Shown here piece by piece: positions 2,518-18,078 of a DNA stretch of 64,000 nucleotides. How positions within the stretch are numbered: the first letter of the stretch is position 1; every line of letters starts with the position of its first letter. The notes below the pieces were generated by a model. The model was not told where the DNA came from. It saw only the letters and a list, made by a program, of their open reading frames with translations, and made no database searches. Source of the DNA: Escherichia coli (GTDB lineage: Bacteria; Pseudomonadota; Gammaproteobacteria; Enterobacterales; Enterobacteriaceae); the NCBI RefSeq assembly GCF_050320075.1, contig NZ_CP190018.1; one strand, given 5' to 3'. Position numbers and translations under genes: made by a program.

Positions 2518-2706
2518 ATGTCTACTCAACTTGATCCCACCCAGCTGGCCATTGAATTTTTACGCCGTGACCAAAGCAATCTTTCACCTGCCCAATATCT
2601 CAAACGTCTGAAACAACTAGAACTTGAATTTGCTGACCTGCTTACTCTCTCTTCTGCTGAATTAAAAGAAGAAATCTACTTTGCCTGGCGTCTGGGCGTG
2701 CATTGA
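2518..2706 (+). CDS. ydiH: small protein YdiH, 62 aa
   Basis: Internal ATG at 2518 of track ORF 2437..2706 gives the 62-aa protein MSTQLDPTQLAIEF...; position between menI and sufA. Confidence 0.7.
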   Translation: MSTQLDPTQLAIEFLRRDQSNLSPAQYLKRLKQLELEFADLLTLSSAELKEEIYFAWRLGVH

Positions 2707-2899
2707 TCCTGACTTGATGCCGCAATTTCGCCAAATCGACCTTGATTAACCTCCGTCCAGGTTCGATGGCCTTCTTAATACTGCTTATCTACCCGCCTGA
2801 TATTGTTCAAAAATAATACTAATCGCAGTTTGTGTTAAAACGGCGGGTTAGCTTTATGAGATTATTCTTATCGCCCCTTCAAGAGCTAAGCCACTGAGA

Positions 2900-2972
2900 G
2901 TGCCGGAGATAAGCGCCGGATGGGGTAGAAACCCTTAAGCCTGTGTCGCACAGACTTAAGGGTTTTCTTATT
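2900..2972 (+). ncRNA. candidate small RNA ending at an intrinsic terminator in the ydiH-sufA spacer; possibly RydB; 5' end not determined
   Basis: Orphan hairpin plus U-tract about 220 bp downstream of ydiH with no ORF; an sRNA is known in this spacer in K-12 but I cannot recall its sequence. Confidence 0.3.
2930..2972 (+). terminator. Rho-independent terminator: 10-bp perfect stem AACCCTTAAG/CTTAAGGGTT followed by TTTTCTTATTT
   Basis: Inverted repeat 2930-2939 / 2955-2964 then T-rich tract, read directly. Confidence 0.6.
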
Positions 2973-3189
2973 TCTGAACGCTGCACTTTTTTACCTATCT
3001 CTTAAATAGTCATTTTCAATACAACTTTTTCTTTTTCATCACAGCCTTAATGCTCCTTAGATAATAATCATTATCTAACAATGAGATACCTAATTCTTAG
3101 CGTGCCTGTTAACCCACACATCAGGGTCTATGCTTATTAAAAGCAGGAAAAAAGCATGTTTTACGGTAAAGCCCCTGCGTTTGCTGGGT

Positions 3190-3210
3190 TGAACTGATAA
3201 TCATTATCAC
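3190..3210 (+). promoter_or_regulatory. Fur box in the sufA promoter region
   Basis: GATAATCATTATC at 3196-3208 matches the 3' 13 nt of Fur consensus GATAATGATAATCATTATC; about 45 bp upstream of sufA ATG. Confidence 0.7.
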
Positions 3211-3254
3211 TAACATGCTGTTATACGCTGAAAGCGATGAAGTGAGGTAAATCG

Positions 3255-3623
3255 ATGGACATGCATTCAGGAACCTTTAATCCACAGGATTTCGCCTGGC
3301 AGGGCTTAACGCTGACACCCGCAGCCGCTGTCCACATCCGCGAGCTGGTGGCAAAGCAGCCGGGTATGGTCGGCGTGCGCTTAGGCGTGAAGCAAACGGG
3401 CTGCGCGGGCTTTGGCTATGTGCTCGACAGTGTTAGCGAGCCGGACAAAGACGATCTGCTGTTTGAACACGACGGCGCGAAGCTGTTTGTCCCGCTGCAA
3501 GCGATGCCGTTTATTGATGGCACGGAAGTCGATTTTGTTCGTGAAGGACTTAATCAGATATTCAAATTTCACAACCCTAAAGCCCAGAATGAATGTGGCT
3601 GTGGCGAAAGCTTTGGGGTATAG
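3255..3623 (+). CDS. sufA: Fe-S cluster A-type carrier SufA, 122 aa
   Basis: 122-aa ORF with C-terminal CGCGESF motif; first gene of suf cluster. Confidence 0.95.
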
Positions 3624-17296: not shown

Positions 17297-18078
17297 ACCC
17301 GTCGCAACATGCTGAACAGTTTCAGAGCCAGTTGGCGAACTATGTGCCACAGTTCACTCCCCAATTTTGGCCGGTGTGGTTGATCATTGCCGGACTATTG
17401 CTGGTAGGGATGTGGTTTGTGCTGGGGCTGCATGCCTTGCTTCGTGCTCGTGGCGTGAAGAAATCAGCCACCGACCATGGTGAGAAGGTTTATCTTTACA
17501 GCAAAGCGGTCAGATTATGGCACTGGTCGAATGCGTTACTCTTTGTATTGTTGCTGGCAAGTGGGCTGATAAATCACTTTGCGCTGGTGGGCGCAACTGC
17601 GGTTAAAAGTCTGGTTGCGGTGCATGAAGTTTGCGGATTTTTGTTACTGGCATGTTGGCTCGGCTTTGTTCTGATCAATGCCGTTGGGGGTAATGGTCAC
17701 CATTATCGCATTCGTCGTCAGGGGTGGCTGGAGCGAGCGGCAAAACAAACGCGATTCTATTTGTTTGGCATTATGCAGGGGGAAGAACATCCTTTCCCGG
17801 CAACAACACAGTCTAAATTTAATCCCTTACAGCAGGTTGCCTATATTGGTGTCATGTATGGATTGCTGCCGTTGTTACTATTGACGGGGCTGCTGTGTCT
17901 CTATCCGCAAGCCGTGGGAGATGTGTTTCCTGGCGTAAGATACTGGTTATTGCAGGCGCATTTTGCTCTGGCATTTATAAGCCTCTTTTTTATCTTCGGT
18001 CATCTTTATCTTTGCACCACGGGGCGTACGCCACACGAAACCTTTAAAAGCATGGTCGATGGCTATCACCGGCACTAA
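17293..18078 (+). CDS. ydhU: PhsC/cytochrome b-like membrane subunit YdhU, 261 aa
   Basis: 261-aa polytopic membrane protein; ATGA overlap with ydhX. Confidence 0.88.
   Translation: MNPSQHAEQFQSQLANYVPQFTPQFWPVWLIIAGLLLVGMWFVLGLHALLRARGVKKSATDHGEKVYLYSKAVRLWHWSNALLFVLLLASGLINHFALVGATAVKSLVAVHEVCGFLLLACWLGFVLINAVGGNGHHYRIRRQGWLERAAKQTRFYLFGIMQGEEHPFPATTQSKFNPLQQVAYIGVMYGLLPLLLLTGLLCLYPQAVGDVFPGVRYWLLQAHFALAFISLFFIFGHLYLCTTGRTPHETFKSMVDGYHRH

Follow-up and report, generated by a model that had tools for sequence, protein, structure and literature searches.

The hairpin and T-rich run at positions 2928-2973 of the window (the whole 64-kb stretch of Escherichia coli DNA analysed here, numbered from its first letter) most probably form the Rho-independent terminator of the rydB transcription unit, whose precursor RNA would be shortened to the 61-nt small RNA RydB; we put the probability of this reading at roughly 80%. 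The hairpin is best seen as the terminator of a short-lived precursor, and not as the 3' end of the mature sRNA. RydB itself is an already described small RNA, with a gene known since 2001, and the hairpin is the terminator expected for it. What remains of note is the mature form that lacks this terminator, together with the invariance of the lower stem of the hairpin.

Support for the terminator reading comes from the strong stem with an immediate T-run, which lies on the strand of the upstream genes, and from the position of the hairpin, which starts 2-3 nt past the Rfam core of RydB, at the last base of the K-12 annotation. Furthermore, the RepRanger paper tags rydB with a Rho-independent terminator, and in the Salmonella annotation rydB has 105 nt (1450415-1450519), which would be long enough to include the hairpin.

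RydB and the hairpin that follows it

The window runs in reverse orientation to K-12, with a mean column identity of 99% in the alignment; positions 2861-2975 are identical to K-12 in that alignment, and 2700-3260 are 100% identical to strain YZLc1-3. The annotated genes around the hairpin all lie on the + strand: ydiJ (ending at 2011), menI (2008-2418) and ydiH (2519-2706) upstream, and sufA (3255-3623) downstream, followed in the gene list by sufB. The hairpin stem lies 224 nt from the end of ydiH, and the T-run 282 nt from the start of sufA, in agreement with the distances of about 220 and 280 bp estimated in a first-pass annotation of this DNA. That annotation was also right in attaching no ORF to the hairpin, as the only ORFs that overlap it are mechanical ones of 20-35 aa.

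Rfam family RF00118 (rydB) matches the + strand at 2873-2933 over the whole of its 61-position model, scoring 81.6 bits where the gathering threshold is 50 (E = 1.2e-18). The RefSeq annotation of rydB in E. coli K-12 (b4430, also tpe7 and IS082; 68 nt, NC_000913.3 1764713..1764780 complement, between ydiH and sufA) maps by alignment to 2861-2928, in the same spacer and on the same + strand. Both identifications bear out the earlier suggestion that a candidate sRNA in this spacer was possibly RydB, as well as the strand chosen for it. The interval proposed for the sRNA, 2900-2972, has to be corrected: RydB spans 2873-2933 and thus lies mostly upstream. G2928, where pairing in the hairpin begins, is the last base of the K-12 annotation, and the hairpin lies beyond both the annotated gene and the Rfam model, save for its first 5-6 nt. 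What had been described as an orphan intrinsic terminator has the anatomy of one and adjoins the known rydB gene, 2-3 nt past the core.

The hairpin arms as read from the sequence, AACCCTTAAG (2930-2939) and CTTAAGGGTT (2955-2964), form the perfect 10-bp stem that was first noticed, and a repeat search extends them to 2929-2945 and 2949-2965, that is 17 nt with 94% complementarity, a 3-nt loop and C2940/A2954 as the sole mismatch. The complete stem-loop (2928-2966, + strand) comprises a lower stem (2928-2939/2955-2966), the C2940/A2954 mismatch, an upper stem (2941-2945/2949-2953) and the loop UCG. The T-run TTTTCTTATTT (2963-2973, + strand; 8 T of 11), likewise confirmed, comes directly after GGG, and GAAA at the base of the stem is paired with the first four T of the run. 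Folded as RNA, positions 2926-2974 reach -22.0 kcal/mol compared with -7.4 +/- 2.4 in 200 dinucleotide shuffles (z = -6.05), and no shuffle folded as well (0/200). Perfect 10-bp arms with a T-rich tail are found at four sites in the 64-kb window, the lpp terminator among these, and at none in 20 mononucleotide shuffles of the window. An intrinsic terminator is made of a stable stem-loop and a U-rich tract directly 3' of it, and the hairpin displays both on the + strand; the tail on the - strand is only TTTCT. A simple terminator scan of the window, whose model requires a perfect stem and a loop of at most 8, did not list the hairpin at 2928-2966, though both the fold and the repeat search confirm it. 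As we read the stated rules of the scan, the hairpin was missed because its internal mismatch breaks the perfect-stem model.

Of 5426 complete E. coli genomes, 5421 contain the block 2857-2975, which covers the rydB promoter, gene and terminator; in 4376 its identity is 99% or more, and it occurs once per genome (median one place). PGAP annotates no feature over this block in 12 of 12 rows sampled from the 5421 genomes, and of two records opened in full, the curated K-12 record is the one that names rydB.

Ends, structure and predicted promoter of RydB

By homology to Salmonella, the 5' end of RydB is probably G2873, the first position of the Rfam model. Indeed, the S. Typhimurium TSS table places the primary TSS of RydB at the G of GCCCC (sRNA_P42), with a promoter string (-50 to +1) given as ...TTTATGAGATTATTCTTATG and ending in ...GAGATTATTCTTATG. 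The 3' end has been mapped by Term-seq in E. coli (Adams et al. 2021, PMC7815308), where the dominant rydB end, labelled primary, is K-12 position 1764708(-), which corresponds to 2933 in the window. The reads at 1764708 amount to 2,174,030 and 4.14 million in the two displayed rows; lpp has 175,710 reads in the table of the first of these rows, so that the RydB signal is about 12 times that of lpp (PMC7815308). The Term-seq tables for three conditions (PMC7815308) contain three rydB entries, all at 17647xx, and none at 17645, 17646, 17648, 17649 or 17650; these tables hold dominant ends only, and a minor or short-lived end in the T-run is compatible with them. The first-pass annotation had predicted a discrete transcript ending at about 2970, and had named its absence as evidence against a small RNA here. 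The dominant Term-seq end is at 2933, and among the dominant ends listed none is near 2970; taken literally, that absence is what is seen for steady-state RNA.

The mapped 3' end falls between C2933 and C2934, 8 nt past P1 (GGGGU, 2922-2926), which places it 5-6 nt into the hairpin's 5' arm. From the published ends, the 5' end being assigned by homology, the RydB that accumulates would be 2873-2933, an RNA of 61 nt with the same span as the Rfam model. RefSeq rydB (2861-2928) is offset from these mapped ends by 12 and 5 nt. In view of this disagreement, 2873-2933 is preferable to the annotated 68 nt for cloning or deletion; moreover, a deletion that takes out the hairpin may also let transcription run towards the sufA control region. 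In the original northern blots, RydB is said to have appeared as a band of about 60 nt.

Mature RydB (2873-2933, + strand, 61 nt) contains the closing helix P1, formed by 2873-2877 and 2922-2926, a pair of internal hairpins and the 3' tail UAGAAACC, the E. coli RNA ending in ...AAACC. Thermodynamic folding of the 61-nt core yields no signal (z = -0.01), so that its structure is backed only by the covariation in P1, whose two outer pairs show 30 and 21 double changes among 98 sequences. A pairing of the leader CTTATC (2867-2872) with the P3 loop GAUAAG, seen by eye, was dropped because the mapped TSS leaves CTTATC outside the RNA.

A predicted extended -10 element, TGaGATTAT (2857-2865, + strand), precedes the gene with no clear -35, and from comparative sequence we infer that it functions as the rydB promoter element. 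Of 102 non-redundant RydB-like loci, 58 have a hexamer resembling a -10 (with A at position 2 and T at position 6) at 6-8 nt upstream of the start of P1. In the type-1 copies of Escherichia, Citrobacter, Salmonella and most Pantoea, A2, T6 and the upstream TG look constant by eye. The dyad TGAGATTATTCTTA (2857-2870), which overlaps the rydB -10, fits the RcsB-box pattern TNRGAN4TCYNA. In type-2 copies (described below), TAAGAATAATCTTA-like dyads occur further upstream, at about -32 to -19 (e.g. L089, L072). A 2024 preprint reports an effect of RcsB on a rydB promoter fusion.

Conservation of the hairpin and proposed maturation of a precursor

The homologous hairpin was aligned in 25 sequences from Escherichia, Salmonella, Citrobacter, Silvania and Leclercia, and it is conserved as a structure, with covariation. 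Over its 18 pairs, 93.6% of the cells are standard pairs and six pairs show changes on both sides; the observed pairing and covariation values were reached by none of 500 shuffles, and partner columns that had been slid paired at only 19-65%. The upper stem and the loop vary freely in sequence and length, with compensatory changes in the upper stem. The lower stem, GAAACCCTTAAG/CTTAAGGGTTTT, is almost invariant over the five genera, a single compensated change being found in Leclercia (CCCTCAAG/CTTGAGGG); because it is nearly invariant, it says little on whether structure or sequence is conserved. GU pairs at the stem base are present in 25/25 and 17/25 sequences. Such pairs exist only in the + strand RNA, being A-C mismatches on the other strand, and they argue against a role at the DNA level or on the minus strand. 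All 25 aligned relatives have a T-rich run after the stem. The Rho-independent terminators of enterobacterial sRNAs likewise consist of a stem-loop and T-run directly after a short, self-promoted non-coding gene, with compensatory changes.

If the hairpin is the rydB terminator, RNA polymerase would start at G2873 from the extended -10 promoter and would transcribe the structured RydB core of 53 nt (through 2925) and, 2-3 nt further on, the hairpin. The RNA would be released in the T-run at about 2968-2972, giving a primary transcript of about 96-100 nt. This precursor of about 100 nt would not accumulate and would be shortened to the very abundant 61-nt RydB ending at 2933. Both steps, termination at the T-run and the origin of the 2933 end by processing, are what we infer from the mapped ends and the hairpin. 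A point against this reading is that a 3' hairpin of -22 kcal/mol normally protects an RNA, so that its removal would need an endonuclease. One route to 2933 would be a double-strand-specific cut of the stem with RNase III geometry (2933/2934 and 2962/2963); another would begin with an endonuclease opening the RNA, after which 3'-5' trimming would stall 8 nt past P1.

Several further observations count against the terminator reading. No dominant 3' end lies in the T-run in the three Term-seq conditions, for which dominant ends only are tabulated. The stem is moderately G+C rich (7 G-C in 17 pairs) and the T-run TTTTCTTATTT is interrupted. Some relatives, namely Citrobacter sp. R56, C. koseri and Klebsiella oxytoca, have a hairpin with no T-run, or no clear hairpin directly past the core.

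It is possible, with a probability well below that of the terminator reading, that the hairpin is chiefly a processing signal, in which an RNase III-type cut in the stem makes the 2933 end and termination takes place here or further downstream. The dominant 3' end does fall within the 5' arm, with 13 base pairs between it and the loop, and in the geometry of the predicted fold the paired cut given above would leave the 2-nt 3' overhang typical of RNase III. The near-invariance of the lower stem in five genera, next to an upper stem and loop that are free to vary, suggests a sequence constraint beyond pairing. However, for a substrate of E. coli RNase III a stem of 17 bp containing a mismatch is short, and an end 8 nt past a stable helix fits 3'-5' exonuclease stalling at P1 equally well. 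In addition, rydB has no entry in the one RNase III cleavage data set searched, the supplementary files of the Gordon 2017 study. A processing signal would in any case be compatible with a terminator role for the same hairpin.

We also consider, as a speculative and rather doubtful proposal, that the hairpin is a conserved maturation signal whose invariant lower stem (GAAACCCTTAAG/CTTAAGGGTTTT) directs an in-helix cut releasing 61-nt RydB, and that RydB is a compact structured RNA binding a protein or ligand, belonging to a multi-copy Enterobacterales family, and not a base-pairing sRNA. The usual Hfq-binding sRNAs keep their terminator hairpin and U-tail in the mature form, as the Hfq-binding module. 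In contrast, the abundant RydB, ending at 2933, is without terminator hairpin and T-run, and as an abundant RNA of this kind it does not look like a classical Hfq-type regulator. In E. coli tRNA precursors and 6S RNA, the 3' terminator is lost by endonuclease cleavage and exonuclease trimming. RydB is like these in being a structured, abundant RNA with a mature 3' end a few nt past its closing helix, upstream of a DNA-encoded terminator hairpin.

In Salmonella, RydB showed only a 2.5-fold enrichment in Hfq co-IP (4 versus 10 reads), and one paper lists it as Hfq-independent. According to a 2024 preprint, RydB has no known targets or transcription factors; a paraquat array paper describes it as SoxR-dependent. 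It has further been published that RydB is ppGpp-repressed in Salmonella, and that rydB deletion affects persistence.

The RydB-like family and the neighbouring genes

RydB loci were gathered from one genome per species with the invariant P3 sequence as an exact search pattern, so that the invariance of P3 is by construction. RydB-like cores are present in other Enterobacterales, including Pantoea, Erwinia, Rouxiella, Serratia, Kosakonia, Atlantibacter, Sodalis, Raoultella and others. Two or three copies per genome, with unrelated genes as neighbours, are found in Pantoea, Erwinia, Rouxiella, a Serratia sp., Raoultella and some Enterobacter (L011/L036/L037, L021/L022, L029/L030, L034/L035, L045/L046, L056/L057, L062/L063, L075/L076, L110/L111 and others). 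Fourteen RydB-like loci were tested with the Rfam rydB model, and all but L007 score above its gathering score. Copies of the type-2 form (CCCCTTACAGAGCTAACGCC...) have an extra covarying hairpin inside P2; the idea that they make up an undescribed family was rejected, as they score above the Rfam rydB gathering threshold.

The nearest downstream ORF is sufA in 16 instances, all of the type-1 form (Escherichia, Citrobacter and relatives). The remaining copies lie beside LysR-type regulators, a PphA-like phosphatase, dehydrogenases and other genes, several of which are divergent. At 10 type-2 loci (e.g. L077), represented by a Pantoea sp., the ORF closest downstream resembles, by eye, a PphA-type phosphatase. 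In Atlantibacter (L043, 3936-4000 and 4271-4416), a type-2 RydB-like gene and the SraC/RyeA-SdsR/RyeB locus are about 270 nt apart.

Many RydB-like cores of other genera are followed, roughly 5-50 nt on, by an unrelated hairpin with a T-run, as judged by eye from the printed flanks. The hairpin is swapped for unrelated ones in genera whose cores still exceed the Rfam gathering score. Compared across Enterobacterales, the RydB core appears to be a stand-alone, self-promoted RNA gene with an exchangeable terminator module, and this layout supports the E. coli hairpin as such a module.

Two further observations concern the sequences past the core. An AACC shortly after P1, mostly 9-11 nt past the P3 anchor, is found in 17 of 75 loci against 5.6 +/- 2.1 in shuffles, the loci being phylogenetically non-independent; it recurs even beside unrelated downstream hairpins (L012, L013, L018, L021, L029, L074, L082, L114, L116 and others). 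In Sodalis, Acerihabitans and related genomes (L007, L041, L042, L084, L089, L116), a conserved stretch, CAGAAAAGCGCATCGGCNACTTACCTCCTCG...GAGGGAGTAC..., lies about 50-110 nt past the RydB-like core, after gene and terminator, and folds into a hairpin; two of these loci, L007 and L042, were scanned and the stretch matched no Rfam family at gathering score.

The wider family also bears on the possibility that the hairpin serves mainly to terminate the ydiH mRNA and that RydB is cut from the ydiH 3' UTR, with no promoter of its own, which we regard as improbable. It is true that ydiH, rydB and the hairpin share one strand, that no dominant Term-seq 3' end lies between the ydiH stop and rydB, and that the sole terminator-like site in this stretch (2753-2769) is weak. 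However, RydB-like genes exist with no ydiH nearby, and most family members have the -10 element 6-8 nt before P1 whatever the upstream gene. Moreover, the Salmonella table gives the RydB 5' end as a primary TSS (sRNA_P42), and a signal some 12 times as strong as that of lpp is unlikely to come from the tail of a gene with poor expression. The terminator is likely common to the ydiH and rydB units: as rydB terminator, the hairpin would also stop ydiH read-through, and would keep upstream transcription out of the sufA regulatory region just downstream.

There is very little to make us expect that RydB and the hairpin work as a riboswitch-like attenuator, the core sensing a signal that sets read-through into sufABCDSE. 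The core is strongly conserved with the terminator within 3 nt of it, and the RydB 5' end with the 5' strand of P1, GCCCCUUCAAG (2873-2883), resembles the terminator 5' arm AACCCUUAAG (2930-2939), so that alternative pairings can be drawn. Yet these reach only -8.1 and -7.3 kcal/mol against -16.4 for the terminator arms, and the terminator persists when the 5' end is forced unpaired. The sufA gene lies 282 nt on and has its own predicted promoter (3038-3065) and a Fur-box-like palindrome. In other genera, the cores adjoin unrelated, often divergent genes in 2-3 copies per genome, with terminators at variable distances, and no consistent co-oriented set of downstream genes is found across the family. 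Equally remote is the idea that the palindrome acts as DNA, as a protein-binding site or REP-like element: it is near-perfect, contains CTTAAG and, going by the upstream activating region of sufA reported by Lee et al. 2004, would lie about 15-20 bp before that region, but its upper stem and loop vary in sequence and length with pairing kept, G-U pairs are common in it, all relatives have the T-run, and the block is found once per genome.

Upstream of ydiH, the stretch from its predicted promoter (2421-2448) to its start codon (2519) contains an imperfect 28-nt inverted repeat at 2449-2508, with the core CTGCACAGTA ... TACTGTGCAG. This repeat may be an operator or a hairpin of the 5' UTR; its Rfam match to mir-1278 is at chance level (E 0.73). 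Upstream of sufA, the hexamers of the predicted promoter at 3038-3065 (ATCACA-16-GATAAT) agree with the sufABCDSE promoter of a published list. A Fur-box-like palindrome at 3057-3078 (TTAGATAAT/ATTATCTAA, around GATAATAATCATTATC) overlaps this promoter match, and a second sequence like a Fur-box palindrome (TGATAATCATTATCA) is located closer to the sufA start.
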